Origin: Deltaproteobacteria bacterium
GTDB lineage: Bacteria > Myxococcota_A > Polyangia > Fen-1088
DNA length: 64,000 bases
Assembly (NCBI GenBank): GCA_033763315.1
Contig: JANRKS010000031.1
Location: 224,001 to 288,000, forward strand
Direction: 5' to 3'
In this document: one piece after another, positions 29,008-52,496 of the stretch
Layout: every line of letters starts with the position of its first letter
How positions within the stretch are numbered: position 1 is the first letter of the stretch
The notes under the pieces: generated by a model
Told to the model about the DNA's origin: nothing
The model's input: only the letters and a program-made list of their open reading frames with translations
The model's database searches: none
Made by a program: the position numbers and the translations under genes

Positions 29008-29488
29008 GTCAATGCTTAACGAAATCAGGGTTTTGTCGAAGATGTCGGTCGCCGACCTGCGCCTTCGGCATGTCGAACTATTCGGCGAGGAATCACGCAG
29101 CCGCAACCGAGACTACCTCTGGAAACGCATTGCCTGGCGTATTCAAGAAGTCGCCGAAGGCGGCCTCGACGAGCGAGTGAAAGCAAAAGCCAGGGAACTG
29201 GCGCGCGACCCTGATTTGCGGGTCACGCAGCCTCGCCCATTGAGGGGAGTAACGGTGGTCGACACGACCAAGGGCACCAACCTCAAAGACGAGCGACTAC
29301 CGGAGCCTGGCACGACTTTGCAGCGAGAGTTTCGCGGCCGTACGTACTCGGTAGCTGTACTGCCGGACGGCTTCGAATACGAAGGCGAGCGCTTCAAGTC
29401 ATTATCTGCCGTTGCGCGCATGATTACCGGGACCCGCTGGAACGGCCTCGCGTTCTTCGGAATCGCCGGTGCCAAGGAGCCTGCCTAA
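29000..29488 (+). CDS. DUF2924 domain protein
   Basis: LWKRIAWRIQE...GGL; PGTTLQREFRG..V.VLPDGFEYEG..FKSLSAVARMITGTRWNG..FFG. Confidence 0.92.
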   Translation: MSESMLNEIRVLSKMSVADLRLRHVELFGEESRSRNRDYLWKRIAWRIQEVAEGGLDERVKAKARELARDPDLRVTQPRPLRGVTVVDTTKGTNLKDERLPEPGTTLQREFRGRTYSVAVLPDGFEYEGERFKSLSAVARMITGTRWNGLAFFGIAGAKEPA

Positions 29489-31089: not shown

Positions 31090-31586
31090 GCGCAATTCCC
31101 GCCAAGATTACCTACAACTTTCGCCGCAGCCGCGCGCTGAGCAACACAGGCATCGAACTCGTGAATGTCGACGGGGTCAATGAGGACGAAATACGGGAAG
31201 GCTCACTCAACACTTCGTCCATCGCACCCGCAGCACAACCTGCAGGCAAGGTGCCTCGGATAACGCGGATGCTTGCGCTCGCGCACAAGTTCGAGGCCAT
31301 GCTCAAGAGGGGGGAAGTAGAGTCTCTGGCTGACGTCGCGCGGGCCGGTCGCGTGACGCGAGCTCGGCTATCGCAGATCATGGATCTGGTTCTCCTCGCG
31401 CCCGACATTCAGGAGCAGATCATGGGTTTTGAGCGCGTGATGGCCGGCCGCGATCCAGTGACGATGCGTGACGTGCAAGCGCTGGTTCGGTTACCCTACT
31501 GGCCAGAGCAGCGTACCGCGTGGCGCAGGATCCTAGACTGGCGAAGCGCAAAGGCGCCGTTGTTGGCAAGAAAGGCCGGTGGTTGA
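31086..31586 (+). CDS. Recombinase-associated HTH-like protein
   Basis: RITRMLALAH..GEV.SLADVAR.GRVTRARLSQIMDL.LLAPDIQE, a type often found after DUF2924-linked recombinases. Confidence 0.75.
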   Translation: MSAIPAKITYNFRRSRALSNTGIELVNVDGVNEDEIREGSLNTSSIAPAAQPAGKVPRITRMLALAHKFEAMLKRGEVESLADVARAGRVTRARLSQIMDLVLLAPDIQEQIMGFERVMAGRDPVTMRDVQALVRLPYWPEQRTAWRRILDWRSAKAPLLARKAGG

Positions 31587-31790: not shown

Positions 31791-32477
31791 TCACGAGTCA
31801 GAAAGAGTCTGGGGATCTTGATCGTCAGCGTCTAAATCAGGCACCGCAATGGCGGGTGGGCTTGTCCTCGGATCGCGTGGCGCGCCCTCCTTTTCGGCGG
31901 AACGCAGCGCTCGCTTTGCAATGGCAATCAAGATGGGAATGGACGCGGTCATAAGAGACGCCGTAGCGGGCTCACCCACAGAATCTCCCGCTAGGGCGGT
32001 ACCCACGAGTTTACCGAAGATACCGCGGCGCTTGACGTAAGCCGTGGCCCACCGTTGGGCGATCGCCAATTCGATCTGGTCGGGTTTCATGCTCCGCCGC
32101 CGCTGCCATGACAAGAGCCGCGCTCGGCGTGCAATGAGCTTGCGAAAGAAGGCGCGGAAGACTTTACGCCGTAGCGGCCCTGTGGCCGCCTTTAAGCCCC
32201 GCGCCGCGTATTTGGTAGTGGAAGCCGTCAAAGCCAAAGGATGCGCCCGTAGCGCCACACGCGACGCCCTCGATGCGAGAGCGCGGGACCCGCGCTTGGC
32301 CCTTTTTATGACATTGAGGGCTCCTGCCACTTCCGCAGGACACAGATCGCAATGCTTAGCCGCCCTTTGCAGCGGAACCCCCTGAGCTAGGGCCGTGGAG
32401 AAGCCTTTGAGGTGGGCCCGATAGGCGTAAGGCGCCCCTATAAGCAAGTCGAAAAGGCGATCGTCACTCTTCGCCAT
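31791..32477 (-). CDS. Basic Arg/Ala-rich hypothetical protein (possible virion core protein)
   Basis: AAGGAG RBS; very basic core, hydrophobic C-terminal helix, acidic tail. Confidence 0.6.
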   Translation of the reverse strand: MAKSDDRLFDLLIGAPYAYRAHLKGFSTALAQGVPLQRAAKHCDLCPAEVAGALNVIKRAKRGSRALASRASRVALRAHPLALTASTTKYAARGLKAATGPLRRKVFRAFFRKLIARRARLLSWQRRRSMKPDQIELAIAQRWATAYVKRRGIFGKLVGTALAGDSVGEPATASLMTASIPILIAIAKRALRSAEKEGAPRDPRTSPPAIAVPDLDADDQDPQTLSDS

Positions 32478-33147
32478 CGTTCGCTCCTTGCAAAGCGTCT
32501 GCTGGCTTCCCATCCTCGGCGTGTTGCCCATTCCCAGCCTGTTCAGGTTTGGCTTGCTGGACAGGTGCGGAAACCGGCGCAGGGTTCTTGCGAGGCTGCA
32601 CAGGCCGGAACTTGCCGGTTGCCGGATCGAGCACCTGGCCGAATTCGAGCGAATCGACGCGGCCTTCCTCGAAACGGGCGTCGAGCGCACTACAAAGAGC
32701 TGGCATCAAGTCGTCGACTTGACGAACCTGGCGGCCGAGTACCGTCGCAAGCTGACCAAGCACACGCGGCGGCACAAGGAGGCTGCGGCGCATCTCGTCG
32801 TATTCGGCGCGCAATTGCCAGATTGTGCGCGGCGACTTCTTGGTCGTCATGACGACCTTGGGCAAACTCTTCTTTGCCTCGAAAAGAGCGAATACGGTGG
32901 CGGCGGTTTCGTCATCCGGATCGCCATTTGCACTGGAGCGCTCGGTAAGACCAGCTCTTTGCAAGAGTACCGCGCGCACTTCGTCGGACCTATACTGCCA
33001 AACGCGGCTGCTCGTGCGCGTGGGGTGAAGTTGGTGGCCGTCCATCATGGCCACTTCCTCATCCGAGACGCCGAGAAGGCTCGCGACTTGCGCTCTCGCG
33101 AGCCGTCCTTTGGCCCCGTGGTCTGTTGACTTCGCCGTTTTATTCAT
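32464..33147 (-). CDS. Putative HTH DNA-binding protein
   Basis: LARAQVASLLGVS MerR/excisionase-like HTH plus a second HTH-like segment; GGGAGC RBS. Confidence 0.6.
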   Translation of the reverse strand: MNKTAKSTDHGAKGRLARAQVASLLGVSDEEVAMMDGHQLHPTRTSSRVWQYRSDEVRAVLLQRAGLTERSSANGDPDDETAATVFALFEAKKSLPKVVMTTKKSPRTIWQLRAEYDEMRRSLLVPPRVLGQLATVLGRQVRQVDDLMPALCSALDARFEEGRVDSLEFGQVLDPATGKFRPVQPRKNPAPVSAPVQQAKPEQAGNGQHAEDGKPADALQGANDGEE

Positions 33148-33237
33148 CTTGCTCCCTCCCCCTTAAACAACCGTGACATGAAACGACTGCGTTCAGCTCT
33201 CGATCGAATATGAGCACGTGGATGAAAGAGACAAGTC

Positions 33238-34403
33238 AAATCCCGGGAGGATTTGCAGCGAGGCATTTGGCCCTTCGGCCGTGAGTAAATGAAGCGGCAA
33301 CACAAGCACACGCAAGCCGGACGAAAACCAGCAACGTGCCGATTGTTGCTTTCGCGATTGCGCCGAAGACGCCTAAGGGACCGATATGACGGCATAGCGG
33401 TGCGGCAATTTCGCGGTCACAACGTGCCTTTTCTTCAGCACGTGCGGATGCATCGACACGCACCACCAAACACGGAGCCCGTCGCTTTCGTGACAGCGGC
33501 GTCGTCCGCGCCGTTTGGCGGACTTGCGAGCCATTAGGCGGCGACCGTGGGTGAGCAATATCGCTGCGTTTACTGCACGCGCTCGGTCGTTGCACGTACA
33601 GCATGTGGCAGCAGCAAGTCCGCGAAAACACGTCGGGGCATTCGGGCACTCATCGAAAATGGCGTTCTGTAATCCGCGTCTTGCCGGAAAAACTCGCCGC
33701 CACGCTGGCAAGACTCTTTCGGGCCCCGACACTTTGTGAGCAATCGCTGCTGCAGGCGGCAATGCTTGCCTCGGGTCGCAGGCAAAAGCGCTTAAGACCA
33801 TTGAGTGTGGCTACTCGAAATCATCCATCGTAATGACTCAACAGATCCGGGGGATTTGCAGCGATGGGTTGGGCCCCAGCTGCCTTCGAGTGAACCAAAA
33901 GCGCAGACACGAGCACAAGCAAACGGGCCAAAAGCCAGCAACGTGCTGATTCTGGCCGTCGTTGTTTCGCCATAGCCGGCTAAACCGCCGATATGACGGC
34001 ATAGTGACGCGGCAATTGCAGATCACGAGGTGCCTTTTTATCTGCAGGTGCAGACACATCGACGACCAGCACAAACAACAAGCACAACGATTTCGTCATC
34101 GCACCGACTGTCGCCTCGTTTGGCGGACTTAGAAGCGGTTTGGTCGCTTCGTTCGGCGAGCATTGTTGGTCTCTTGACTGCACACGCTTGGTTGTTGCAC
34201 GTGCCGCACGCGGCGGCAGCAAGTCCGCGAAAAGACGTCGAGGCATTCGGGCACTTATCGAAAAATGCGTTTCCGTGACGGGCGTTTTGCCAAAGACGTC
34301 GGGGCCACGCTGGCAAAACTGTTCGGGACCGAGCGCTTTGTGGGCTGTTTCCGCCGCAGGTACAAATTCTCGCCTCGGGTGGCCACCATAAACGCTGCAG
34401 ACG
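33238..34403. repeat. Two tandem diverged non-coding units of about 570 bp (period about 604 bp)
   Basis: Shared collinear blocks: GGATTTGCAGCGA, CCAGCAACGTGC, CCGATATGACGGCATAG, CGTTTGGCGGACTT, GCAGCAAGTCCGCGAAAA, GGCATTCGGGCACT, GCCACGCTGGCAA, GCCTCGGGT. Confidence 0.9.
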
Positions 34404-34642
34404 AATGACTGGGGATGAGCAAGAGCGTCTCCCGCAATAGCTCGACGGGGTGTCCATCTATCTATATGCGAGGGGGGTCGAACATCGCGGAGGGCCGGCG
34501 GGAGGTTCATCGAGAATCGTCGACCATTGTCACCGATCGTTGGCGTCGCGGAAGGCGCTTGCAAAAGCTCCCGGGTTCGGCTCGACAGAACTTGATTGAC
34601 GGTCCACACCTAAATCATGGGCAAGGGGGATGGGAGGTCAAC

Positions 34643-35935
34643 ATGGCAGCGAATGCAAGAGAGAGAATCGATTCGTGGGTAGGGCAGCTCTTGGCGAACA
34701 CACCACAAGCTGAGGGCGTCGCGATAGTGCTGGTTCACGCGGCAGTCGACCAAACGCAAAGGGTCGTCAAATCCTGGCGCCTAGAGGATGCCGTCACGAA
34801 CCTCGAGGCATTGGTCACAGAGATTGACGAAGTTGCCGAGGGGGACGCAGAGGGATTGGGGGGCCGGCAGCGTTACCTCCTTAAGGCGCAAGTGCGTGGC
34901 AAAGACATTGGCAGCATGGCTGTGCGCTACGAGTTGCGTAACGACGGCGGCACGGCGGCGGTAGATAGCGAGCCTGCCACCACGGCAGGCAGCATGGCGC
35001 TTTTGCAGCGGCATGCCGAAGGAGCGATGCGGATGATGGTGCAAAGCTTTGGCGGCGTCATCGAATCCTACAAAGAGCAAGTCAACGCGCAAAAGGCACT
35101 GATCGCGGAGTTCCAAAAGCAGGCAGCCGATAACTTCCGGCTGCAAGAAGAGCTGGCCTCACGCAAGCTCGAACAAGACCTGCTGCTGCAAGAGCGTCAG
35201 ACGCAGCTGCAACTGAGCGCCGCCAAAGAGGCGAACGAGATTCAAAAGAGCCAACTTCTTTGGGGTCACGGCCTAACGACACTTATGAAAATGGCGCCGT
35301 CGTTCTTGTATTACGTTTCGGGTGGCAAGGCTGGTACCCGTCCCGAGGAGTTACTCGACGCAAAGGCGACACCAACGCCCGTAAGTGATCAAATTTCTGA
35401 CGAGCAAGAGCGGCAACTGTTCGGCAACGCTACGGAAGACACCATCGCTGCGTGGAAAGCCGAGCTTGCTCCCGCGCAAGTCGAGTACCTCATGGCACGG
35501 CTCGCCGATTACCGCGCACGCAATCCTGCCGTCGTTTCGTCAAACGGCGACCCGAGCGTTGCCCCCACGCATGCACCACTCCGTAAAGCGGATACCGCGC
35601 TCGCCCAGTTTGCGACCCATCTTTACGAAACGCTCGCCCGCCATAGGCACGTACTGCAACCGTTGGCGATGGCACTCATGGCTCGACAAAATTTCGCGAG
35701 CCTGTCCGAGGACGATGCGCGTCTACTTGGAAAGGTTGCAGCCGACGCTGGAATCGACGGTGTGGCCGAAAGCCAAGGGGGCGAGCGACTATGGATGGCG
35801 CTGCTATCCCAAGAGCTGATGTCGCTTGCTCCCATCGTGACCGGGCTCAACGCCGGAAAGACTTGGTCGGGACTCCCCCAAGGGGACAAGCTGCTGCTCT
35901 TGAAGATGGCACAGCAGGTGGGACAATTGGGCTAG
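34643..35935 (+). CDS. Coiled-coil hypothetical protein with amphipathic/hydrophobic segment
   Basis: GGAGG RBS; Q/E/L-rich heptads followed by LWGHGLTTLMKMAPSFLYYV. Confidence 0.7.
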   Translation: MAANARERIDSWVGQLLANTPQAEGVAIVLVHAAVDQTQRVVKSWRLEDAVTNLEALVTEIDEVAEGDAEGLGGRQRYLLKAQVRGKDIGSMAVRYELRNDGGTAAVDSEPATTAGSMALLQRHAEGAMRMMVQSFGGVIESYKEQVNAQKALIAEFQKQAADNFRLQEELASRKLEQDLLLQERQTQLQLSAAKEANEIQKSQLLWGHGLTTLMKMAPSFLYYVSGGKAGTRPEELLDAKATPTPVSDQISDEQERQLFGNATEDTIAAWKAELAPAQVEYLMARLADYRARNPAVVSSNGDPSVAPTHAPLRKADTALAQFATHLYETLARHRHVLQPLAMALMARQNFASLSEDDARLLGKVAADAGIDGVAESQGGERLWMALLSQELMSLAPIVTGLNAGKTWSGLPQGDKLLLLKMAQQVGQLG

Positions 35936-36221
35936 GTTTGGTGCGCAAGCCCAAGTGTCAATGAAACGTAAAAGATGACTCGTGACAGCTAGAAAATAGA
36001 CTGTTAGAGTAAATGTCAGAACACTGGCTCTTGTCAAAAGTGCAGCGGTGGGCCAGGCCCGAGTCGGGATGTCGCATGCGCGGTGCGTTGTGGTGGAGAC
36101 GGGGCGGCCGAAACTGGGCGGTTAGCGCGGGTTCACATTCACGAATGGGTGCTGGCCCGCTTGGTCTGCAGATTGCTTTACGGCCAGTTCATGGGAAAGC
36201 GGCGCCTGGAGGACAAGACGG

Positions 36222-36422
36222 ATGGTCAATGAGCTGCGATGCAAAGGTTGCAAGACGTTGCTTGGGACCGACGACGATGAAGGTCTCGTCATCCGCCGCG
36301 GCGGCATGCAGGCAACGGTGCCTCACGCAGAGACGGCATCGATTGTCTGTTACAAGTGCGGACGACTCAACTCAATGATCTTGGCGGCGGGGCGGGCGTC
36401 TGCGAACGACGCAGACAAATAG
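36222..36422 (+). CDS. Com-like zinc-ribbon protein
   Basis: ELRCKGCKTLLG...IVCYKCGRLN, similar to Mu Com-type regulators. Confidence 0.7.
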   Translation: MVNELRCKGCKTLLGTDDDEGLVIRRGGMQATVPHAETASIVCYKCGRLNSMILAAGRASANDADK

Positions 36423-36556
36423 ACTACCGTCGAAGGCTTGAAATATTTTTGACCTAACCGACTGTTTGGATCGTTCAAACGTACGAAGAGCGCATTTGAC
36501 GCCAAAACCTACGCGGCCCTCGTGAGCGCATGACGCCGGCCCGATGGAGGGGCCCT

Positions 36557-37774
36557 ATGTGTAAACGTTGGAAGGCGATGGAATGCGCGTTCGAGCGCAG
36601 TGTTGCTGGTGCGGCGGCTCAGAGTTGGAAGTCGCTCGTAGACGCAGAGCCCGAATTGCTCGGCTACGAAGATGGCAAAGCGCTTCTCAATCATCTTCAT
36701 GGGCAGATGGGATCGGATGCGGAGCGAGATAGAATCTTGTCTGCGCTCGTGCAGGCGTCGCGGGTGCGTAGTCCGAGTGGGCATCTTGCGCGCGATCTGA
36801 TCTGGCTTGCACTATGGCCTGGGTTGACGGCACTGCGGCGCCGTCTTGCAGGTTGGGGCGCGGAAGACGAAGATGAGCTTTCCGCTCAAATAGCAATGAC
36901 GTTCACCGAGGTGCTCGCGCGCCTTGCGCCGACGACGTCGACGAAGGTCGCGGCGACCTTACTTTGGAACACGCGCAAATACGTCTCACGGCTTTTGCAC
37001 GAAAGCGTGGTCGCGCGTGGAACCGAAGTCAGCGTCACCACCGAAAAGATAATGAGTGCCTCGGACACAGCTGGCTGTGACTGGACGGAGTTCATCTCAG
37101 ATCTCGTCGCCCAGGCGGGCCCTGATGCCGAACTCGTCTTGGCTTGCGTCGTCGAGGGACTCACTGTGCGCGAGGCGGCGACACGTTGCCAGTTGCCGGC
37201 CGAAGCCATCAAGAAGCGTATGCAGCGAGTGATGCGGCGGTTGCGCGCGAACGTTTCTGCGAATTTTGCGCAGTCTGATGTCCCTTTTTCCGCAGAAAAA
37301 GAGCTTATAGGAGGTGAAAGACGCAAACGCTTGGGGCCTGACCAACGGGAAGAAGTTGGCGAGCGAGCCCGCGCAGCGCAACCGGAGGCAAGGCATGTGC
37401 TCGAAAAGCAAATGGCTCCCGTCGACAAAGCTCAAGCTCGAAAGACGCGCCCGGCATTACACACGCGTCGTCGGATACGAAGCCACCTTCGCCACCTGCG
37501 GCGCCTGGGAGGTGCATGCAGAGCGCTTAGAAAAACCAAGGACGCAGACGCCATGAAGACGATGACATTACCCGTGGCGGTGTTGGTGGCGCCCGCCAAC
37601 GAGCGAAGTTTGTCGGGCGCCGAGAAGGTGGTGGCCTATTGCGATGTGTGTCGGCGTTGGGGCGAGCGAGGCAGCCTTCACGTTTGCGGCGAGAACTGGA
37701 GCGAACACCTGCTCTCCGTTTTGGCCATCACAGGACAAAGCACAGCAGCACCCACCACGAGGAGGCCCCAATGA
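36557..37774 (+). CDS. Sigma-70 (ECF)-like protein; C-terminal part may be read-through into small genes
   Basis: LIWLALWPGL region and region-4 HTH (VEGLTVREAATRCQLPAEAIKKRMQR); internal RBS/ATG at 37395 and an in-frame ATG at 37553. Confidence 0.6.
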   Translation: MCKRWKAMECAFERSVAGAAAQSWKSLVDAEPELLGYEDGKALLNHLHGQMGSDAERDRILSALVQASRVRSPSGHLARDLIWLALWPGLTALRRRLAGWGAEDEDELSAQIAMTFTEVLARLAPTTSTKVAATLLWNTRKYVSRLLHESVVARGTEVSVTTEKIMSASDTAGCDWTEFISDLVAQAGPDAELVLACVVEGLTVREAATRCQLPAEAIKKRMQRVMRRLRANVSANFAQSDVPFSAEKELIGGERRKRLGPDQREEVGERARAAQPEARHVLEKQMAPVDKAQARKTRPALHTRRRIRSHLRHLRRLGGACRALRKTKDADAMKTMTLPVAVLVAPANERSLSGAEKVVAYCDVCRRWGERGSLHVCGENWSEHLLSVLAITGQSTAAPTTRRPQ

Positions 37775-38142
37775 AGATTCACATCGCCGCTCGCCGCGTT
37801 CTGTTGCCGAAGGCTAGCGCCGTCGCCGAACACCTCGAAGCCGCTGGGCATCGGGTGGTGTCACGCTGGCTTCGTGGTCCTGCCAAGCGCGCGACGCTAG
37901 CGGAGCAAGCCATGGGGGACATGACGGACATCGCGGTCGCCGACTGTCTGGTGCTGATCGGGGAAAAGGCCGACGAGGAAACGGGAGCGCAGCGAGATTG
38001 TGAGCGTTACGTGGAGTTTGGGTACGCGCTCAAGTCAGGAAAACGCCTTTGTGTCTTTGGTCCCCTCGAGACCGCGTTCGGGCACTTAGAGCACGTACAA
38101 CAATATCGCTCGATCCGGGAGCTTCTCGATGGGTTGCGCTAA
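37771..38142 (+). CDS. Nucleoside 2-deoxyribosyltransferase-like protein
   Basis: KIHIAA..GHRVVSRW..D..DI..ADCLV..YVEFGYAL..GK. Confidence 0.7.
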   Translation: MKIHIAARRVLLPKASAVAEHLEAAGHRVVSRWLRGPAKRATLAEQAMGDMTDIAVADCLVLIGEKADEETGAQRDCERYVEFGYALKSGKRLCVFGPLETAFGHLEHVQQYRSIRELLDGLR

Positions 38143-38446
38143 TCGAAAGGGCGCCTTGCCCGACGCCGCTCAAGCGCTGCTTGCCGAGCACGAGGCGAAG
38201 CTCGAGGCTTTGGCAAAGTTATACGTGGGTAAAGTCGAGGCCGTACGGGCGGCGCGGGAAAAGGCCATCGCCACGATTCGCTCGAAGGCGAGTCAAGCGC
38301 TCATCGAGCTCGTCGCGGATTTCGAGAAAGAGCGTTCGATCATGCTGGTGAAGTGTGCGCTCGCATGTGAGGGCGCCCGGGGCGAGCCCGATGCCGCCGC
38401 CGCAGACGGGGTTCCACGCCGTCAACGCAGAACTGGAGCCAACTGA
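38129..38446 (+). CDS. Hypothetical helical protein
   Basis: Coupled ORF with amphipathic helices. Confidence 0.5.
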   Translation: MGCANRKGALPDAAQALLAEHEAKLEALAKLYVGKVEAVRAAREKAIATIRSKASQALIELVADFEKERSIMLVKCALACEGARGEPDAAAADGVPRRQRRTGAN

Positions 38447-38754
38447 TGCTCCCTGCAAGTGCTCTTAATGAGCCGTGCAGAAGTCGTGTAACCAAAGGGC
38501 ATGGCTTCGACATATGGGCTCAGTATTTCGCCGACCCACGTCTCGGCGCCACCAGCGCACTTCATTTGGCAGCGATGGCAGTGGACTTACCGACGCACCG
38601 TGGGCATGAGCATAGGGCTCGACGTCTCTTGCTCGTTGAAGGTGTCATCGCGGGACCACGAGGGCGAACGAAGTTTGTCGCCGCCAGGCTCTTTGCAAAA
38701 GAGCGCGGAGCGCGCGCTCGAAACGACCAGTTTTCAAACGTAGGAGAGGAGGCG

Positions 38755-39132
38755 ATGCACATGACCGATAAGGAGTTGTCCGAATTTGGCGGCAAGCTTT
38801 ATGAAGCCGTGTTGTTCACGCCGCTTCCAGCCGCCACGGTCTTCAGCTTGGCGCTCGCCGTTCGGCAAGCCATTCCGTGGGCGCACCTACCGCAGCATCT
38901 AAAGTTCGCGGTGTTCAAGATTGCCGCCAGTTGCACAGGCGAAGTGGTGGCCGATGCGCCGTCGCACGCGGCGAGCGACGCTGCGCCAGAGAGTCACACA
39001 AGTTCAGGCGCCGTGGTGGACCACGTGCCGCTCCGCGACGATGTGGATGTCGAGCCAAGCGTCAGCGCCGAACAAGTTGGCGCCTCGCTGCCTGGCACAT
39101 CAGCAGGAGATGGCGAAGCGTCAGCGGCCTAA
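38755..39132 (+). CDS. Hypothetical protein
   Basis: Strong RBS GGAGAGGAGG before ATG 38755. Confidence 0.55.
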   Translation: MHMTDKELSEFGGKLYEAVLFTPLPAATVFSLALAVRQAIPWAHLPQHLKFAVFKIAASCTGEVVADAPSHAASDAAPESHTSSGAVVDHVPLRDDVDVEPSVSAEQVGASLPGTSAGDGEASAA

Positions 39133-39185
39133 GGCCGCGAGGGGTTGGAAAAGTTCGTTTCACGCCTTGGGAAGGGGATAAAGAC

Positions 39186-39716
39186 ATGGCACTCGATTCA
39201 TTGACACGGACACCGTCAGGAGGGCTCGAACAAAGCCGCCGCGCGCCTTCGGTGCTCGAACGCTTGGCAGCGGGGCAAAACCGGTTCTTGCGGCTAAGCG
39301 GGCGACCGTCGGGAACAGGGCAAAACAACGAGGGGCTGATGCACAGGCTCAAAGCCGCCGGCATCGCGCAAGCCGAATCGGGCGCCGTGTCGCTCGCGCT
39401 TGGGTATCTCGCCGCGCGCTCCCCAGAACACTTGCGTGTGGGGCCGCTGCCGCTTGAGTTCCTGATGGGTGTGGGCAGCCACGCGGTAGCGCTCATCGCC
39501 TCGCCCGAGGCCGCTGTCCATCTGCACTCGGTAGGCACAGGGGCCATCGATTCCTTTTTGAATTCGCTTGGCCGAGGCTTTGGCCGGCGGGCTCGTAAGG
39601 CGGCCGGGCTACCGCCGCCAGCAGAAACATTCTTGGCTGGCGACGACGGTGCCGAGACATCGGGGGGCGGCGCGCTTTCGGACGAAGAGCTCGCAAGTCT
39701 TGCAAGGCGAATCTGA
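39186..39716 (+). CDS. Putative virion membrane protein
   Basis: Gly/Ala-rich hydrophobic helices; immediately upstream of the capsid candidate. Confidence 0.5.
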   Translation: MALDSLTRTPSGGLEQSRRAPSVLERLAAGQNRFLRLSGRPSGTGQNNEGLMHRLKAAGIAQAESGAVSLALGYLAARSPEHLRVGPLPLEFLMGVGSHAVALIASPEAAVHLHSVGTGAIDSFLNSLGRGFGRRARKAAGLPPPAETFLAGDDGAETSGGGALSDEELASLARRI

Positions 39717-39812
39717 CGAATTTTGTGAAATGCCCGCGCAGCGCGCGGCATAGAGCAGCGCGGTCGAGGGTCGAAGGGTTTGTGGAATTTCAATTGTGGG
39801 GAGGACACGCAA

Positions 39813-40487
39813 ATGCACACGGACATCATGGGTGACGATTTTCTCGGCGACGACTTGGGCGACGATTTGGAGGGCGAAGAGCTCGGCGAAGACGAACTCG
39901 GCGACGACATCATGGGTGACGACATCATGGGCGATGAACTCGTCGGCGTAGACGACATCCTTGGTGACGACATCATGGGCGACTACTTGGTGGGTGCTCA
40001 AGCGGCGCGACGCCGAAGACTTCGCCAGGCACGGCCAGCCGTTTCAGCCGCCGCGGCGGCGAATGCGAAGAAGGCTCTCATGCGCAAGGCGATTTTGGCC
40101 AAGCGCTTGCGAAACGCGGCCATCGTCCACAAGCGTGGTCCAAGCAAAAGCCGTGTGCAGCCACTCGGCTTTAGCCGCGAGGCGATTGCGCCTGGTGATA
40201 CGACCGAAATTACGGCACGGCCACAGGTGCTGTTTCGTGGCCGCCGTTTGCTGGTGGGGTCGACGATCGCGGGCAGTTTCACCATTGAAGACATCAAGGT
40301 GGGCCGCAACAGCCAATTCGTAGGCACGGGCCCGCAACCGGCGGAAGCGTTCCGCGACACGGCAACTGGCGACAATATCTCGCTCGATACGTGCAAGCCT
40401 GGCGTCGACATCAGCATCACGGTCCGCAACATCACGGGTGCGGCGGCGGACTTTCGCGCGACACTGTTCGGCGACGTGGTCGAGTAG
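39813..40487 (+). CDS. Candidate single jelly-roll major capsid protein with acidic propeptide and basic arm
   Basis: GGGGAGG RBS; (I/L/M/V)GDD repeats, then an Arg/Lys arm, then about 110 aa of alternating beta strands (PQVLFRGRRLLV..FTIEDIKVG..PAEAF..LDTC..ISITVRN..FRATLFG). Confidence 0.55.
   Translation: MHTDIMGDDFLGDDLGDDLEGEELGEDELGDDIMGDDIMGDELVGVDDILGDDIMGDYLVGAQAARRRRLRQARPAVSAAAAANAKKALMRKAILAKRLRNAAIVHKRGPSKSRVQPLGFSREAIAPGDTTEITARPQVLFRGRRLLVGSTIAGSFTIEDIKVGRNSQFVGTGPQPAEAFRDTATGDNISLDTCKPGVDISITVRNITGAAADFRATLFGDVVE
39823..39994 (+). repeat. Imperfect ~15-bp coding tandem repeats (GACATCATGGG[T/C]GA)
   Basis: Four near-identical copies plus degenerate ones, encoding DIMGD/DLGD/ELGE. 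Confidence 0.85.
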
Positions 40488-40726
40488 GGCGAGCAGCCGA
40501 GAAGCGATTTCAAACGGGCGGCGGGTAGGGGAGGGAAGAACGCGCGCGCGTTCACAAGAAGAGCCGCGCAGTGGACGCGGCCATCAGCTGCGACGGCGGC
40601 TGCAAGGGGGGAGAGGGCGGCGGCGTGGAGTGTCGAGGCAGTGGCGGCGGGAGAAGCGGGGCCCGAGGCGTCGATAGCCGAAGCATGGCGAAGGCGCCTC
40701 GGGCCAGGCGGGAAGAAGGTGCACCG

Positions 40727-41212
40727 ATGATGCAACCAGTGGTCTTCAAGGTTCAGTTGTTTAAAGACGCAGACGATCGGCCTCGCTCGCAGGAAGCGCT
40801 GCTGTGGATGCTCGAAGCGCTTTGTAAGATCAACGACGGCCATCTCGCCGAGCGGCCTTACCCACCGCTTTACGAATCGGGTGTGCGGTACCAACGGGAA
40901 CTCGGCACCGAAGAGTGGCTCGACATTCCGTCAATCATTCAAGCGGGGTGGGGCGACTGCGAAGATTTGGCGTGTTGGCGTGTCGCGGAACTCCGCCGGC
41001 AGGGGCAGCACGCGGGACCTTATGTGCGGTACCGAAGCCTCGACGGCGTTTTTCATTACCACGCGCTCGTCATGCGCTATCGGCGTGTGCTTCGACCCGG
41101 TCCTAGGGGTCGCTTGGTGGAAAGCTTCGTGCCCGACCATATCGAAGATCCGTCGAAGAAATTGGGCATGGGCTCGGCCGCCGATGCCATCCAAAGGGAG
41201 CTCGAATCGTGA
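40727..41212 (+). CDS. Transglutaminase-like cysteine protease (candidate maturation protease)
   Basis: GDCEDLACW (Cys), YHALV (His), IEDPS (Asp) triad. Confidence 0.7.
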   Translation: MMQPVVFKVQLFKDADDRPRSQEALLWMLEALCKINDGHLAERPYPPLYESGVRYQRELGTEEWLDIPSIIQAGWGDCEDLACWRVAELRRQGQHAGPYVRYRSLDGVFHYHALVMRYRRVLRPGPRGRLVESFVPDHIEDPSKKLGMGSAADAIQRELES

Positions 41213-41925
41213 TTCTCTTTGCCGGCATCGCCCTTGCCATCGTGCTCTTGGCCCTTTTTCGCAAAGGCGCGAGCAACGAGGAGATTGTCTCGAGGCTTAG
41301 CAAGCAAACAGATCCGCGCGTCGTCGCCATTGCGGCGAAGCTCTTGTCGGAGCGGGGCATGAGACTCACGGCCGAGGTGCTCGAAGCGCGCGCAAAGCGA
41401 CTGGCTGCGGGCAACAATGCGGTAAGCGGTGATGAAGGTGCATCGACACTGCGCTCGCCGTTTTTGGCGGCGTCAGATGGAGCGTGGACCAATTTTGTGC
41501 GGCTACTGGTGCAAAGCGATCCGCACGCAAGGTCTTCGCGAGGAAGGCTCGGTCGTTTCGATATTCATCTACGCCGGCTCGAAGAAATCGGGTGGGTGAC
41601 TGGGGTTCGCTTCAACGAAGAAGGGGTGGCACAGGCCAAGTGGGTGCCACCCATGAGCGAAGAGCGCTTCCTAGCCGATGCATGGGCGCAATACCGGGCG
41701 CTCGTAGCGACGCTCAAGCTTTGTCGCCGTCAACTCGTGGGTTGTGGCGTCGACGCGGCCACGGGAGCGCCGGTCAAGGATTCAGGGCCCACATTGTCGG
41801 GTGTCTTGGCGGTGGCCCATCGATTGGGGGCGGAGGGCGCAGTCAAGTGGCTGCGCTCGCCGCTCGAGCGGGCTCGGCAGCCGGTGGCAACGGCGCTGTT
41901 TAGGAGCGCGAACGGACTTTTCTAG
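41209..41925 (+). CDS. N-terminally anchored lysozyme-like protein, possibly inactive
   Basis: N-terminal TM; LGRFDI..L..IG, FL..Q, TLSGVLAVAHRLGAEG; catalytic Glu position appears as Gln (LVQS). Confidence 0.5.
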   Translation: MILFAGIALAIVLLALFRKGASNEEIVSRLSKQTDPRVVAIAAKLLSERGMRLTAEVLEARAKRLAAGNNAVSGDEGASTLRSPFLAASDGAWTNFVRLLVQSDPHARSSRGRLGRFDIHLRRLEEIGWVTGVRFNEEGVAQAKWVPPMSEERFLADAWAQYRALVATLKLCRRQLVGCGVDAATGAPVKDSGPTLSGVLAVAHRLGAEGAVKWLRSPLERARQPVATALFRSANGLF

Positions 41926-41936
41926 GAGGACGCACG

Positions 41937-43268
41937 ATGCACATCCAAGGCGACATAAAGATTTGGTCTGACGGACACAAAGTGTGCGCTCGACTCGAGG
42001 CCGATGGCCCCGAGGGTCCCATCGTCATTCAAGCCTCTGCACCGATAGGTCCCGTGAGACGCAAAATGGCCCGCGTGTTCGCTCGCCAAGGCGTCACTGT
42101 GTCGGGCGCGGACCCCGCGTTTGCCGCCAAGGTGCAACAAGTGGCGAGGCGCAAAGCGCTCAAGCGTCTACAGCGCATGGCCCCGGGAGCGTTTCGCAAA
42201 GGCGGGCTCGGTCCCTACCTTGCGCAACAAGAGCTGCTCAAGCGCAAGAAGCGTCGACGCGCGTTGGCTGGGGCCGGGCGACCGGTGGGGGCAAAGCCCG
42301 TGGGACCACTGCCAGCCAAGAAGACTCGACCCGCCCCGCAAAACTGGCGCGCACGAATGCGCGCGACGGCACGTGGGCCGGCCGGAGGGCCGCGCGCTCT
42401 TTTGCCTGCGACACCGAAGAAGGTGGCTGCGCTCATGGCGCCTTCGTCGCTGCTCGTGCGCCCGTCAATACCGCGGCCCATACCGTCGCGCAGCCCTGGA
42501 GGTGGACGTGGTGGCGGTAGTGCCCACGGCTCATCGTCGGATAGGCCTGGGGCCGCTGCGCGTGAAGAGGACGGACTCGATGCGGCAAGCGAAGCCAGGG
42601 ACGAACAAAGTCAAGCGCCGACCGGGCAAGATGAGGAATACGCCGAAGGTGAAGCCGATGCTGGACAAGACGCTGGGGACGGCGGCGAAGGTGACGAAGC
42701 CGACGCCGAAGATGAAGAAAGCGAAGGCTCCGATGAAGGTGCGGAGCAAGAAGGCGAAAGCGACGGCGTAAGCGGTTACGGTTTTCGCGGCAGGCGTCAA
42801 CGCTTCGATGAGCGACGCCAATTGCAGGCCCGGCGCAACATCGCGATCAAACGACTACGCGCAGCCATGAGGCTCTTGTTGGCGGCGTACCACGATCCAG
42901 ATGCACGCCAGCGCATCGTCGATATCGCAGCCATGGCTGGCGAAGGACATCCCGGCGCGAAGAAGAGCTTCAAGGCTTTGGCGGTGGCTCACAAGCTGCA
43001 CAAGAAGGCACAGGTCCGATCGGCCACTAAGGCGCTCGCGCCGCGACGACCCGTTTACGGCAAAGCTTTAGCTACAAGCAAGGCCAAGCCGCAAAACAAG
43101 GCTCTCATAGCCACGATAACGAAGGCGACTGCGTCGCGAGCATCATCCACGACGAACGCAAAACCAAAAGCGCTCACGGCACCATCGCCACCCTTTACAC
43201 CGGGTACGCCCGCGGACGCCGTGAGGTGGTGGGACATCCTGGCGGCTTGGCGACGCGGCATGGGTTGA
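41937..43268 (+). CDS. Low-complexity basic/acidic block protein (putative virion core protein)
   Basis: AGGAGG RBS; Arg/Lys-rich block, ~70-aa Asp/Glu block, second basic block, C-terminal WWDILAAW. Confidence 0.65.
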   Translation: MHIQGDIKIWSDGHKVCARLEADGPEGPIVIQASAPIGPVRRKMARVFARQGVTVSGADPAFAAKVQQVARRKALKRLQRMAPGAFRKGGLGPYLAQQELLKRKKRRRALAGAGRPVGAKPVGPLPAKKTRPAPQNWRARMRATARGPAGGPRALLPATPKKVAALMAPSSLLVRPSIPRPIPSRSPGGGRGGGSAHGSSSDRPGAAAREEDGLDAASEARDEQSQAPTGQDEEYAEGEADAGQDAGDGGEGDEADAEDEESEGSDEGAEQEGESDGVSGYGFRGRRQRFDERRQLQARRNIAIKRLRAAMRLLLAAYHDPDARQRIVDIAAMAGEGHPGAKKSFKALAVAHKLHKKAQVRSATKALAPRRPVYGKALATSKAKPQNKALIATITKATASRASSTTNAKPKALTAPSPPFTPGTPADAVRWWDILAAWRRGMG

Positions 43269-43337
43269 GGACGCGACAAGAGGCGATTCGGCGCAACGTT
43301 AAGACCACAAAAAGGCAACGGCATTACGGGGAGGCAG

Positions 43338-43628
43338 ATGATGGCAAAGCTCGACGAAGTGGAACAAACGGCGATCGATTTCATCAGGGGTGCAGGCCGC
43401 TATGGCGTGTATCTGACGCACTTGGGGCTCGAGGTCGCCGGTGTGGCCGATTGGCTCGAGAACCAAGTTCCACGACTGCGACGCGCATTTGGCCTCATCG
43501 CCACGGTGGCCACGACGGAATGCGTTCGGGCAGCCGAAGAGTTTCGTGACGTCCATGGCGGGCCGAGTCGCCCACCGAGGGACGAAGAACACCGCCGCAA
43601 TCACAACGCGTCCGCCCGGGAAATGTAG
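43338..43628 (+). CDS. Hypothetical protein
   Basis: GGGGAGG RBS; operon position. Confidence 0.5.
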   Translation: MMAKLDEVEQTAIDFIRGAGRYGVYLTHLGLEVAGVADWLENQVPRLRRAFGLIATVATTECVRAAEEFRDVHGGPSRPPRDEEHRRNHNASAREM

Positions 43629-43650
43629 CGACGTTGCCGAGGAGACGACC

Positions 43651-44376
43651 ATGGCAGTGAACGGCACCACGAACTCGCCTTACGAGCCTATCTTCGCCAA
43701 GTATGCGGGCGCGATTCCGCAGGCGTATTTGCGAACGCTCGCCTACAAGGAAAGCAGCTTCAAAGCTGACGTGGTTCATCCGCAAAGCAATGCCACAGGG
43801 CTCTTTCAGATCACTAGCATCTGTCTGCAGGGTTTCAACAAGGCCAAGGGTACGGCGTTGAAGCTCGCGCAGCTAAAGGATCCGAATCTCAACACGATTG
43901 TGGCTGTCTATCATCTCGGCCATGTCATAGGCGTGTACGCCCAAGTCCGATCGCTAAAGCCCGATTGGACGAGCCGCCGTTGGCTCGAACTCCTTACGCT
44001 CGGTTGGAATGCGGGCCACAACGCCATCATCGGCCTTGCAAAACAAATGGAAGCGTCAGGCCTACCGCCCGAGCGCATCACCGTCGATTCCGCAAGCCAG
44101 CTCGCGCGAGCGACAGGCAAGGGCAAATACGTCGCCGAACCAGATCGCGTGGCTTGGTCGAAAAGCGTGGCAACCATGTTTTTGGGCGGTGGAATCATCC
44201 CCACGGGCAAGTCGCGACTGCGGCAACTGGCGTCGATGTTGCCGGCTCTGCCGGCGGCCAAAGGCGGCGGCATTGCGGTCGCTTTCGCGCTCGCAGCCGC
44301 TGGTGCCGCACTGATTTTGAAGAAGAAGGAGGCAAGCGATGACTTCACGGGAAGAGCAGCTTATGCCCGCACCTGA
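43651..44376 (+). CDS. Lytic transglycosylase (SLT) with C-terminal membrane anchor
   Basis: LAYKESSF (catalytic Glu), ATGLFQI, DPNLN, WNAG; C-terminal GIAVAFALAAAGAALILKKK. Confidence 0.85.
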   Translation: MAVNGTTNSPYEPIFAKYAGAIPQAYLRTLAYKESSFKADVVHPQSNATGLFQITSICLQGFNKAKGTALKLAQLKDPNLNTIVAVYHLGHVIGVYAQVRSLKPDWTSRRWLELLTLGWNAGHNAIIGLAKQMEASGLPPERITVDSASQLARATGKGKYVAEPDRVAWSKSVATMFLGGGIIPTGKSRLRQLASMLPALPAAKGGGIAVAFALAAAGAALILKKKEASDDFTGRAAYART

Positions 44377-45412
44377 TGTAACGGCGGCGCCCGAAACCGT
44401 TGCCGGCGCCGACGGCGCGGCGCCCGCCAAGGCGCTGCTAAGGCGCATCGATGCCAGCATCGATGCATTTGGCCAGGCGGTTCGCAGAAGCACCGTAGAA
44501 AAAAGGCTTCGCAAAGATTGGCAGGACTTTGCTCGGCAATGGCGAGCGTTCTTGCTCGAGGAGAAAAGCCATCCGTCGACGACCGGAATGCGTGAAGCCT
44601 CTCGCTTTGCCTCAGAACTTGTCGACTGGAAGAAGCGCTTTACAGCGGCCCTTCGACATCCGGAGCGCGACGGAATGGAAGGAGCGCCTGTCTCGCCATC
44701 GCCATCGCCATCGAAATCTATATCCTCCGAGACCCCCACGGTCACGCCCGGCTCGATTCGCTACGAGTGGCAGGCGAGTAAAAAAGAAGTTGACGACGTC
44801 GACCGCGACATCATGCCTAGCGACGTGAGTGACACGTTCAAGCAGGCGTGGCGACGCTACGCGGGCCATTGGCAGCAAGCCTTCGAGCGCTGCACCGCCA
44901 ATCAACGCCTCTCGCCAGCTGCGAGTTGGCGGCTGGCTCGCGCCTACCGCCATCGCACTCGAGCGTGGGCGCAAGCGTTCGGGCGTGAGTGCTCGGGAAA
45001 TCATGCGAGCTCCGAGCTAGGCGCACTCATCGTCACCCCGGGCGCGATGCTCGACGAACTCAACACCGTCAACAATGGCGTCAAGCAACTGGACGCCGAC
45101 ATCAGCGCGAGCAAGGTGCGGGAGGCTTTCAAAAAAGCGTGGGCCGACTTCACGGTCGAGTGGAAGAAGTTCTACGACAGCAAGCAAGGCTTCTTTAGCC
45201 GCACGTGGGGCTCAACGATGGAGAAGACCATCGAATACCGCAAGCGCGTGGATGAGTGGCGCGCGGCTTTCAACCGCGAAGGCGGCCTCACGACCGGGCC
45301 CACGCTCAATGTCCCCGAGCCGAAGGGTGCAACAGGAGGCTCTTGGAGGTGGTGGGCCGTAGGCGGCTTGCTGGCAGGGGGCGCCTATATCGGTGTCAAG
45401 GTGCTGCGATGA
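44339..45412 (+). CDS. Three-repeat helical protein with C-terminal TM anchor
   Basis: Three Trp-rich repeats (W..F...W..F ... W...F); WWAVGGLLAGGAYIGVKVLR tail. Confidence 0.7.
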   Translation: MTSREEQLMPAPDVTAAPETVAGADGAAPAKALLRRIDASIDAFGQAVRRSTVEKRLRKDWQDFARQWRAFLLEEKSHPSTTGMREASRFASELVDWKKRFTAALRHPERDGMEGAPVSPSPSPSKSISSETPTVTPGSIRYEWQASKKEVDDVDRDIMPSDVSDTFKQAWRRYAGHWQQAFERCTANQRLSPAASWRLARAYRHRTRAWAQAFGRECSGNHASSELGALIVTPGAMLDELNTVNNGVKQLDADISASKVREAFKKAWADFTVEWKKFYDSKQGFFSRTWGSTMEKTIEYRKRVDEWRAAFNREGGLTTGPTLNVPEPKGATGGSWRWWAVGGLLAGGAYIGVKVLR

Positions 45413-45454: not shown

Positions 45455-45667
45455 ATGGACAAGGTGGACAAGCTTGCCTACGAGATAGAGGCGATGGTCG
45501 ATCGCAACAGCATGGCGCGCGTGCTCGATTTACTCGCCATCATGTGCGCCATGAAGGCCGACCACATTCATTCGAATTGGGGCGATCGGAATCTCGCGAA
45601 AGCCTGGACGCAACTTGCGGAAAAAGTCGCGAAGGCGTGTGCATTCGCGGAACAACAGCAGCTCTAA
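45455..45667 (+). CDS. Small hypothetical protein
   Basis: GGGAGG RBS; helical. Confidence 0.5.
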   Translation: MDKVDKLAYEIEAMVDRNSMARVLDLLAIMCAMKADHIHSNWGDRNLAKAWTQLAEKVAKACAFAEQQQL

Positions 45668-45704
45668 GCTACCGGCAACCAGACGCACGGGCAAGGAGCA
45701 AGCG

Positions 45705-46442
45705 ATGAAAGTCGGCAAGGATGGCTGGTTGCAAGCCGAGCCGGGCGGCGCCAAAGTCGTAAAGCTTCCCACGGTACGCCTAGTGAAGCTTTCAGTGCCC
45801 GCACCCATCGCGCTCGTATGGCATGCAACGGGTGGCGTGGGTGGTCCGCGGTTCGCTGAAGGATTGGCCCGTCGAATTCAAACCTACAAGCGCGGTATAG
45901 ACCGTCCTGCGTCCTGGCACATCGTCATCGCCGCGGATACGGGTGACGTCTTCCAAAGCGCGCCTTTGAGCATAGGCACGTGGCACGTAGGACGCCCCGG
46001 CACCATCGATGGGGTTCATCACCCGTACATCAATCGCGTCACCCTCGGCGTCGAGCTCGAAAACGCCGGCAGCCTCATCAAAGTCGGCGATGCGTTTTAC
46101 GCTTATCCATATTGGCTCAATCGCGAAAAGCGGCTTCCGCATCCCGGGTGTCGTCTGCCCAAAGAGCGCGTCCGTTACCACGAAGGTCGTGCTTACGATC
46201 GGTTCAGCGATGCGCAAGCCGACACTGCACGCGAGCTCGTCGCTGCGCTTTCAGAGCATTTTGGCTGGCAGCCCAACGCTTTTGGTTACGCGCACGCCGA
46301 CTTCGGGGCGCCAGAGAAGACCGACCCGGGACCCTTATGGATGAAGGCTCGCTTGCCTTCGGTCCTTTGCAACGTCTTTACGGGTGACGGGCCCACGGTC
46401 GTCACGGGACCACCGGTGTTTGACGAAAGGCCCTCTTCATGA
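45705..46442 (+). CDS. N-acetylmuramoyl-L-alanine amidase (Amidase_2) endolysin
   Basis: VWHAT, ASWHIVI, WHVG, N..TLGVELEN, HADF..KTDPG zinc-amidase motifs. Confidence 0.88.
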   Translation: MKVGKDGWLQAEPGGAKVVKLPTVRLVKLSVPAPIALVWHATGGVGGPRFAEGLARRIQTYKRGIDRPASWHIVIAADTGDVFQSAPLSIGTWHVGRPGTIDGVHHPYINRVTLGVELENAGSLIKVGDAFYAYPYWLNREKRLPHPGCRLPKERVRYHEGRAYDRFSDAQADTARELVAALSEHFGWQPNAFGYAHADFGAPEKTDPGPLWMKARLPSVLCNVFTGDGPTVVTGPPVFDERPSS

Positions 46443-46921
46443 GCCCAGATGACATGAGCACGTGCGCGACACAGACTTTGCTGCCGACACTCGCCGCAGC
46501 GGTAACTTGGGCCGCTACACACGCAGGGAGGTCCCTCCGACACAAGCGTCACGCGGCCGAGGTCGCCAACGCGATTGTGCGGCTCGACCATGTCGTGAAC
46601 GCAGTCGTGCGCGAACTCGAGCAGCGCGCGGCGGGGGTGTTGCGGCAAGTGACGAAAGACGCGCGTCTTAGCGACATGGTCAAGGACATGCTTCGTAAGG
46701 CTGCTCTTTTAAAAACCAAGCAACTGCTCGGCGAGAGGCAACTCGCTCAACTGGCGAAGGTCGTCGGTTCCAAAACCGCCGGCATCGACGAGTTTATCAT
46801 CACGCGCATCGAAGCCGCCGTGCATGGCTTGGCTCAGGCCAGACGCCTGCAACAGGCGCGCAGCCGAGCCGCTGCGGCTTCACAGACCGCGTTCCCGAAA
46901 CTTGCAACGAAAGGGAGATGA
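46439..46921 (+). CDS. Holin-like protein (LL-H type), paralog 1
   Basis: LAAAVTW..RLD.VV..VVRE..IEAAVH shared with 49556..50026. Confidence 0.6.
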   Translation: MSPDDMSTCATQTLLPTLAAAVTWAATHAGRSLRHKRHAAEVANAIVRLDHVVNAVVRELEQRAAGVLRQVTKDARLSDMVKDMLRKAALLKTKQLLGERQLAQLAKVVGSKTAGIDEFIITRIEAAVHGLAQARRLQQARSRAAAASQTAFPKLATKGR

Positions 46922-47993: not shown

Positions 47994-48049
47994 CGTGACG
48001 AGATGAATTTCTTGTGACTGGGCTGGAAAACAAAAGGGGAGGAGCGGAC

Positions 48050-48640: not shown

Positions 48641-48642
48641 TC

Positions 48643-52269: not shown

Positions 52270-52284
52270 AAGGGGAGGGGAGCT

Positions 52285-52485: not shown

Positions 52486-52496
52486 AACGGACTTTC

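Follow-up and report, generated by a model that had tools for sequence, protein, structure and literature searches.

What does a small cysteine enzyme do when its gene lies directly behind that of a candidate virus capsid protein, and are the short glycine-ending motifs of the neighbouring proteins its cutting sites? These questions are raised by a 64,000-nucleotide stretch of contig JANRKS010000031.1 (positions 224,001 to 288,000) from a Deltaproteobacteria bacterium (assembly GCA_033763315.1). This whole stretch is referred to here as the window; all positions are counted from its first nucleotide and its gene calls are rough. The region from ~29 to 57 kb is read as an integrated virus, which is likely tailless and whose host is likely myxobacterial. 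A sequence-only reading had proposed that a cysteine protease matures the virion by cutting after hydrophobic-(S/A)-Gly junctions, and quoted eight such motifs, all of which are present in the genes named. The present analysis points the same way for most of them. The enzyme probably serves as a protease of virion maturation, removing acidic propeptides at hydrophobic-Gly tags, in a single-jelly-roll virus for which no packaging ATPase was found.

Capsid candidate and leader motif

The two genes at the centre of the question, with their key sites, are as follows.

39813..40487, + strand: capsid candidate, 224 amino acids (aa), with leader, basic helix and single jelly roll
39984..39995, + strand: YLVG followed by A, the final motif of the leader, placed at the acid-to-basic switch; predicted site of maturation, strongly conserved
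40727..41212, + strand: 161-aa enzyme, transglutaminase-like, with Cys-His-Asp triad; predicted from triad and modelled fold to be a maturation protease
40958-40960, 41060-41062 and 41147-41149, + strand: triad codons for Cys78, His112 and Asp141

The capsid candidate begins with an acidic leader (aa 1-61, net charge -24) of G-D-x-h-h-G repeats (h, hydrophobic), modelled at a low predicted local distance difference test score (pLDDT). This is followed by a basic arm (aa 62-112, net +16) that contains a helix at aa 63-101, and by a beta domain with a single jelly roll at ~aa 113-224. The best structural match among 48,161 chains is the capsid protein of Sulfolobus polyhedral virus 1 (SPV1), with a Z score of 8.3, a root-mean-square deviation (rmsd) of 2.9, 111 residues aligned and 7% identity; a GOLD domain, a nanovirus capsid and proteins of HCIV-1, HHIV-2 and STIV are tied with it within 1 Z. 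A sequence-profile search of the PDB gave no significant match to the candidate. The model shows that the candidate carries a jelly roll, and we infer that it is the major capsid protein, with a second candidate (g51214) described further below. The domain profile has one match in the source genome and matches 5,128 clusters at 50% identity. Some relatives (P0198-P0338; e.g., P0198, P0209, P0211, P0229, P0200 and P0217) carry two to five tandem jelly-roll copies, most without an acidic leader. The two-copy forms of 230-250 aa look like double jelly rolls that arose separately through duplication.

YLVG closes a series of about ten G-D-x-h-h-G repeats and is not a lone junction. Short motifs of this type are common: across 4,561 roughly called host proteins, the frequency of hydrophobic-(S/A)-G is 4.3 per 1000 aa, and a 250-aa protein has at least one with P=0.66. 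In the window alone, only the capsid candidate is clearly enriched (10 hhG motifs versus 1.2 expected), so the case for the motif rests on relatives. The enrichment that the sequence-only reading had proposed as a test is thus borne out for the capsid candidate and for the leaders of its relatives, and does not extend to the other window proteins taken alone.

The best 150 representatives yielded 117 proteins with one jelly roll and a leader of at least 25 aa. The motif occurs in 111 of these 117 diverse leaders, at 485 sites compared with 192 +/- 11 in 500 composition-matched shuffles, a 2.5-fold excess. In 95% of the 117 leaders, the part ahead of the last site has a negative net charge, and in 84% the part behind it has a positive one. 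The motif sits at the charge minimum in 78 of them, against 39 (maximum 55) when the charged residues are held fixed. As a consensus, the sites read (D/E/Y)-(I/L/V/E/M)-(V/L/I/A/S/M)-G; the next residue, at P1', varies (D, A, E, Y, G or R) and is rarely Pro (3 of 503 sites versus 32 expected). Where acid-to-basic switches are defined by charge alone, the motif is found at 15/19 and 47/61 of those in capsids. The corresponding values are 8/31 for other module proteins, nearly all of them similar to the product of g41937, 2/23 for other locus genes and 43/522 for host proteins. In P0330 and P0287, a basic protein, an acidic motif array and a jelly roll are joined in a single chain. The design of the capsid leader also recurs in an unrelated protein (L080:17652-18557), which has many acidic EILG, EIVG and FVG repeats and then a basic block.

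The cysteine enzyme

The enzyme gene starts 239 nt past the capsid-gene stop codon. The search with this enzyme reported 1000 homologues among 1057 candidates. In an alignment of 63 sequences, D77-C78-E79-D80, H112 and D141-P142 are invariant, and Cys, His and Asp occur in this order in 198 of 209 homologues; the remaining 11 look like fragments, truncations or frameshifts. No membrane segment is present in 206 of the 209, and Pfam and sequence checks found no signal, anchor or wall-binding domain in the enzyme. Long enzyme variants have tails with motif-like sites. P0089, P0104 and P0106 carry an extra N-terminal enzyme copy, lacking the catalytic Cys, ahead of an intact one.

The structural model (pLDDT 91.5) is closest to BDI_1141 (Z 7.8, rmsd 5.7), followed by PeiP (6.9), PeiW (6.5), TglA (5.6) and LapG (5.4). 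The best 34 fold matches (Z 3.2-7.8) include the solved transglutaminase-like peptidases 3kd4, PeiP, PeiW and LapG, and the transglutaminases factor XIII, TG2 and TG3 appear at Z 4-5. Among the matches listed, all 14 with Z of at least 5 are or appear to be of the transglutaminase-type papain-like kind; the Z values are middling and the family is consistent down the list. Adenain and Ulp1 structures are absent from the 50 matches listed, which is no proof of a different fold. The window enzyme has no Pfam match, and its homologues P0119 and P0122 pass the cut-off for PF01841. Sequence and profile searches of the PDB gave no significant match (the LapG profile 4u65 stood at E 0.18). Foldseek returned nothing at E<=0.001 against the PDB and was uninformative against viral models. 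On the model, the enzyme belongs to the transglutaminase-like fold. In these respects the gene is as the sequence-only reading described it, with its triad of Cys78, His112 and Asp141, its fold matches and its place directly after the capsid candidate.

Linkage of capsid and enzyme in relatives

Among 99 loci picked by the enzyme, 83 have a capsid match, at a median gap of 92 nt and within 1.5 kb in 82 of the 83; many of the loci without one are short contigs. As a set picked by the enzyme is circular in this respect, loci picked by the capsid only were used as well, and the enzyme adjoins within ~1.2 kb in 12 of 12 (7/7 and 5/5 checked). Six of these 12 are new (L110-L114 and G412) and the rest match known loci; the re-run left out G453.

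The surrounding genes keep the order g39186, capsid, enzyme, g41209, g41937, SLT, g44339, g34415, while the replication genes change. In the window, the further members of this module and their motifs are the following.

39186..39716, + strand: g39186, upstream of the capsid gene; conserved protein of hydrophobic character, found in 56/99 loci; FLAG at 39630-39641
41209..41925, + strand: g41209, N-terminal hydrophobic segment, possibly lysozyme-like (by eye); AVSG at 41419-41430
41937..43268, + strand: g41937, basic-acidic-basic protein (net +30, -28, +27); predicted core or DNA-condensing precursor; TVSG at 42096-42107 and GVSG at 42765-42776
43651..44376, + strand: SLT lytic transglycosylase (PF01464) with C-terminal hydrophobic anchor
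44339..45412, + strand: g44339, three tandem helical repeats and C-terminal hydrophobic anchor; TVAG at 44396-44407 (before repeat 1), GMEG at 44672-44683 (repeat 2) and SELG at 45011-45022 (repeat 3)
34643..35935, + strand: g34415, conserved module gene, displaced upstream here and 3' of g44339 in most relatives

Some relatives have a Toprim-DUF927 replication protein and others a PF03175 polymerase. The lysis genes also vary among relatives, and the enzyme gene is constant. At L045:5813-7609, L049:2042-3796, L076:1918-3651 and in L056, the same structural module occurs with a PF03175 family-B polymerase (confirmed for L045 and L049) in place of Toprim-DUF927. No integrase was seen in the examined stretches of these relatives, which are possibly lytic members. 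In the provirus G412:C9 (L128-L130), a type I restriction-modification cluster and a nucleotidyltransferase-like pair, recognized by eye from open reading frame (ORF) translations, lie between the replication and structural modules. Four protein scans of IMG/VR (enzyme, capsid, an alignment and a tandem-domain relative) gave no confirmed relative; such scans need exact peptide patterns, which makes this absence weak evidence. A tblastn search of cultured phages gave nothing for the enzyme and three chance-level jelly-roll matches.

The motif in other module proteins

A matrix trained on the capsid leaders, in a two- and a four-position form, was scanned over whole module proteins. With four positions, the g41937 group is enriched (22 versus 9.2, z 4.5), as are two tiny groups. 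TVSG, the first site of g41937, is kept in 8 of 9 orthologues. At the second site, GVSG, a Gly stands at the acid-to-basic switch in all seven full-length core orthologues, and the motif is of the hydrophobic type in four. A cationic amphipathic helix comes straight after the motif in 7 of 19 g41937-like sequences and in P0330.

In g44339, a motif-like Gly is found 10-20 aa ahead of repeats 1 and 2 and immediately ahead of repeat 3. Because linker lengths vary, MAFFT columns fail to align the sites of g39186 and g44339, and an anchored test was used for the latter. From 37 matches, three without the core pattern and one without the anchor were dropped, leaving 16 after de-duplication. SELG is conserved in 12 of these 16 compared with 4.3 in shuffled sequences, and 0 of 5000 shuffles reach 12. 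An alignment of relatives has no conserved motif column in the SLT transglycosylase.

The remaining motif-bearing gene lies apart from the module on the opposite strand.

31791..32477, - strand: g31791, basic protein, likely start 32477; two orthologues found
32436-32447, 32322-32333, 31986-31997 and 31974-31985, - strand: its motifs LLIG, EVAG, ALAG and DSVG

LAG, SVG and EVAG, the last of these overlooked by the sequence-only reading, are kept in both orthologues of g31791 and LLIG in one, and two of the motifs survive a 6-aa insertion between them. In G462, the counterpart of this gene shares the strand of the structural genes.

Proposed maturation pathway

It is proposed that capsid and core precursors would assemble with their acidic propeptides shielding the basic segments. 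The packaged enzyme would then cut the tags and chop the repeat leader to short peptides. This would free one basic helix (net +16) per capsid subunit together with basic g41937 fragments, and so bring about condensation of the DNA. In some relatives, the cut would also expose cationic amphipathic helices, as in adenovirus protein VI. The position of the cut, after the Gly, is assumed from the shape of the motif; the exact bond is uncertain because LapG, the precedent for this fold, cuts an Ala-Ala bond.

Condensation of DNA by the freed basic parts fits a virus without a packaging ATPase, and none was found here. No P-loop ATPase family matched among the 42 window proteins (Pfam and PHROGs), Walker-A-like strings occur twice in the window, in the SLT tail and within an antisense ORF, and no packaging ATPase family recurs across the 99 related loci, many of which are partial. 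That cutting takes place is likely, judged from features of the sequences: an intact enzyme beside the capsid, a strict P1 and loose P1' position, acidic leaders with multiple sites, the fusions, the sites in enzyme tails and the helices that follow the motif.

A number of observations count against this proposal. The motif is degenerate, so selectivity would need to come from accessibility, and h-x-G columns are conserved also in folded and membrane parts of control families. The pattern (a regular expression) was framed partly after the sites had been seen, and the relatives are non-independent, which means that Fisher p-values overstate. Pro is low at P4-P7 too, making its depletion at P1' unspecific. 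Whole proteins show no enrichment with the four-position matrix in g39186, g44339, g41209, SLT, g34415 or g51214, and none outside the capsid with the two-position matrix. The window's own g41937 has no amphipathic helix directly after the motif. Only a weak correlation links the distances of the capsid to those of the enzyme (Mantel rho 0.18, p 0.03; 25 de-duplicated pairs); the trees of these 25 pairs are poorly resolved, and the same tip pairs recur in both. Conservation across homologues, which the sequence-only reading had set as a test of its motifs, also fails at two of them. The Gly-rich tail of g39186 has FLAG in 14 of 23 sequences versus 11.2 shuffled (p=0.14), or 10 of 13 versus 9.2 (p=0.44), and AVSG of g41209 is found only in the two nearest relatives among 51 matches, with no conserved column. 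It holds for YLVG of the capsid and for the sites in g41937, g44339 and g31791, the last from two relatives. Thus, by comparison of the sequences, the motif is a real conserved feature in four of the six named proteins.

Alternative roles of the motif and the enzyme

The motif may have a function that involves no cutting. Tandem short hydrophobic-Gly repeats in a disordered leader would suit multivalent binding, and the tag could be an uncut loading signal that docks proteins on the capsid lattice, a scaffold or a viral membrane, with the enzyme acting elsewhere. There are precedents, as the propeptides of adenovirus pVI and pVII bind a hexon pocket (PMC8156859) and those of T4 target proteins to the prohead (PMC10052503). 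We regard this as rather unlikely, for it leaves unexplained why each capsid-picked locus that was checked has a triad-intact enzyme next to the capsid, why motif arrays stand between fused domains and why long enzyme variants have motif-like tails. Loading can also coexist with cutting, because propeptides target proteins as well. It is scarcely credible that the motifs outside the capsid leader reflect chance or composition and that the repeat in the leader just forms an acidic scaffold or binds metal. The high background rate, the two failing sites and the weak whole-protein enrichment would agree with this, but the anchored conservation in g44339 (0/5000 shuffles), the conservation in g41937, the charge switches and the 2.5-fold excess of leader motifs over composition-matched shuffles would not.

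The enzyme may also have another activity. Its fold family includes factor XIII, TG2 and TG3 (Z 4-5), and three columns of the jelly roll show a conserved Gln (20, 21 and 15 of 26), so that it could cross-link or ligate particle proteins, either as a Gln-Lys transglutaminase or, as a transpeptidase, by cutting after Gly and passing the acyl end on to an amine. This is very unlikely: Gln and Lys are absent from the shared motif, hydrolases or putative proteases make up the best fold matches, and the conserved Gln residues may be structural. Highly improbable, in turn, is a cell-wall peptidase for entry or lysis with motifs unrelated to it, even though PeiP and PeiW of methanogen phages rank second and third among the fold matches (Z 6.9 and 6.5). 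Pseudomurein, the substrate in question, is archaeal. The enzyme lacks a signal, an anchor and a wall-binding domain, SLT and amidase genes are already present in the element, and the lysis genes vary among relatives while the enzyme gene does not.

Comparison with known systems

In the adenain and Ulp1-like catalytic core, His comes before Cys. In the present enzyme Cys78 precedes His112, and it differs from adenain, pS273R, I7L and the mavirus protease further in its transglutaminase-like fold, its bacterial host, the single jelly roll, the hydrophobic P3 and P2 residues, the ~ten tandem leader sites and the fact that cleavage is predicted. The likeness is that a virus-encoded cysteine enzyme is paired with several precursors bearing short Gly-ending sites. 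I7L cuts after the Gly of Ala-Gly-X, and the enzymes of adenovirus and of African swine fever virus after the second Gly of Gly-Gly-X (PMC1198262). Adenovirus cleavage releases basic core proteins and a membrane-lytic helix (PMC8156859), and the polinton-type enzyme is of the Ulp1 family (PMC11161782). The sequence-only reading had assigned adenain, pS273R and I7 to a different fold. The families are separate and their catalytic order differs, yet both are papain-like: adenain, I7, pS273R and Ulp1 belong with the transglutaminases to one papain-like superfamily, in which the first four form a permuted cluster (PMC10318531). The likeness to adenain-type enzymes is a convergence of role between separate papain-like families. 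If cutting occurs, the present system works like the adenain group, yet it is not a member by catalytic order.

Among enzymes of its own fold, LapG and the related BTLCP proteins are a precedent in function. LapG is a Cys-His-Asp transglutaminase-like enzyme that cleaves a protein encoded nearby at a short site, an Ala-Ala bond (PMC3032545); it differs in being cellular and periplasmic, with an adhesin and not a viral protein as substrate. Maturation of several substrates under the guidance of a motif has precedents among bacterial viruses: SPN3US gp245 cuts many head proteins at A-X-E, with several sites per propeptide (PMC10052503). The prohead proteases of SPN3US, phiKZ and T4 (gp245, gp175 and gp21) resemble the present system in that one protease serves many propeptides with a three-residue motif and has a self-cleaved C-terminal tail. 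They differ in their A-X-E specificity and in acting in tailed-phage heads, whereas the element has no terminase, portal or HK97 match.

Portogloboviridae have an internal membrane and circular DNA wrapped in nucleoprotein. This family, represented by SPV1, provides the best, albeit tied, capsid match, and SPV1 has one jelly-roll gene and no packaging ATPase (PMC8812541). Its hosts are Sulfolobales archaea, in contrast to the bacterial host here, and the present element has an integrase. Hydrophobic anchors in several element proteins and the basic g41937 are only suggestive of a membrane and a nucleoprotein. Halopanivirales have two single-jelly-roll capsid proteins and an FtsK-like ATPase; no such ATPase was found here, and the genome has a single match to the domain profile.

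The cultured Salisaeta icosahedral phage 1 (SSIP-1) encodes a PF01841-positive Cys-His-Asp protein, gp34, which is annotated in GenBank as structural and whose Cys and His align with the present enzyme family (hhalign E 0.0025, probability 12%). It is remote, 304 aa long and carries a C-terminal anchor, and the phage has a P-loop ATPase, gp40. SSIP-1 gave no significant capsid match and no acidic repeat leader was seen in it. Its gp47 (L131, 36043-36813) aligns in register with the jelly-roll profile without reaching significance (hhalign E 0.07). The Charybdis element was considered as a match and rejected, as that report describes a different element (10.1101/2025.08.03.668216).

Gene content, ends and host of the element

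Besides an unannotated run, the ~29-57 kb region contains a DUF2924 gene, a large serine recombinase, a sigma-like gene, genes for the SLT transglycosylase and an amidase, holin-like genes, and genes for a DNA methylase and a DUF927 protein. The features outside the structural module are given below.

29000..31586, + strand: integration module, from library matches: a DUF2924 gene, a large serine recombinase and a gene resembling a recombinase
45615..46921, + strand: amidase and holin-like gene (lysis; PF01510, phrog_36209)
46923..49137, + strand: three beta-rich proteins kept in relatives, likely vertex or spike parts as read from sequence alone
51472..52269, + strand: g51214, conserved two-part beta-rich protein found in 33/99 loci; second capsid or vertex candidate
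52266..54356, + strand: DUF927-type replication protein, 696 aa; the Toprim primase domain of its ~900-aa relatives was not detected

No terminase, portal, HK97 capsid or tail match was obtained for the 42 window proteins in Pfam and PHROGs or for 18 proteins in NCBIfam, and g41209 has no family match in Pfam, PHROGs or NCBIfam. From its sequence, g51214 may encode a second capsid or vertex protein. In the distant members L111, L113 and L114, a protein of this type (220-265 aa) is encoded between the capsid and enzyme genes. Given its Toprim-less DUF927 protein, the element may be rearranged or replication-defective. The sigma-like ORF (36530-37774, 414 aa) corresponds to two genes of ~260 and ~70 aa in most relatives. 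Between g32464 and g34415, a ~600-nt tandem duplication with 74-75% identity (33292-33729 and 33899-34334) has no clear gene; it is possibly an origin or regulatory region.

The ends of the element are approximate (left ~26-29 kb, right ~57 kb), as no attachment (att) repeats or tRNA were found. Contigs from two other sequencing runs span the region at 90-99% identity, and the excision joint was not seen in them; no RNA data set was listed among those containing the region. The right end has duplicated DUF2924-like segments (56100-56399 and 56564-56863) related to the left-end DUF2924 gene (29000-29488). To the right of the element, at 57330-60154, a possible defence or mobile island consists of two nuclease-looking ORFs without annotation and a fragment resembling DNA polymerase III alpha.

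Of the relatives on genome contigs, 14 of 19 loci come from Myxococcales, Polyangia and kin, Kofleriaceae or Deltaproteobacteria, mostly in metagenome-assembled genomes of Myxococcota. The capsid profile matches 6 of 88 genomes of the source genome's own family and, with the source genome counted, 7 of 401 in a sample of the phylum.

Significance

No description of the present system was found in the literature, and no paper was found in which Gly-directed maturation proteolysis is ascribed to a jelly-roll virus of prokaryotes or an enzyme of the transglutaminase fold; subscription papers and supplements may hold such annotation. The virus lineage is apparently undescribed, and the maturation mechanism is likely on the sequence comparisons.

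Taken as a whole, a wider picture is put forward tentatively, at slightly less than an even chance. The element would belong to a very large unclassified lineage of bacterial viruses (>5,000 capsid clusters at 50% identity) with SPV1-like, motor-less single-jelly-roll particles. In these, a transglutaminase-fold protease would act as a charge switch, its cuts after hydrophobic-Gly tags stripping the acidic propeptides of capsid and core proteins, triggering DNA condensation and, in some members, arming pVI-like membrane-lytic helices. Morphogenic proteolysis of the adenovirus and poxvirus type would then have been invented independently in prokaryotic jelly-roll viruses.

Gly-directed maturation is known from eukaryotic jelly-roll viruses with Ulp1-like enzymes. 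If the proposal is true, different papain-like families gave rise to one solution on two occasions, and a mechanism for timing DNA condensation would be at hand for viruses that lack a packaging ATPase. The minimal 161-aa enzyme could become a small sequence-specific protease tool. The work also flags a large, apparently undescribed virus lineage, of which the cultured-phage collection and the four IMG/VR protein scans yielded no relative.

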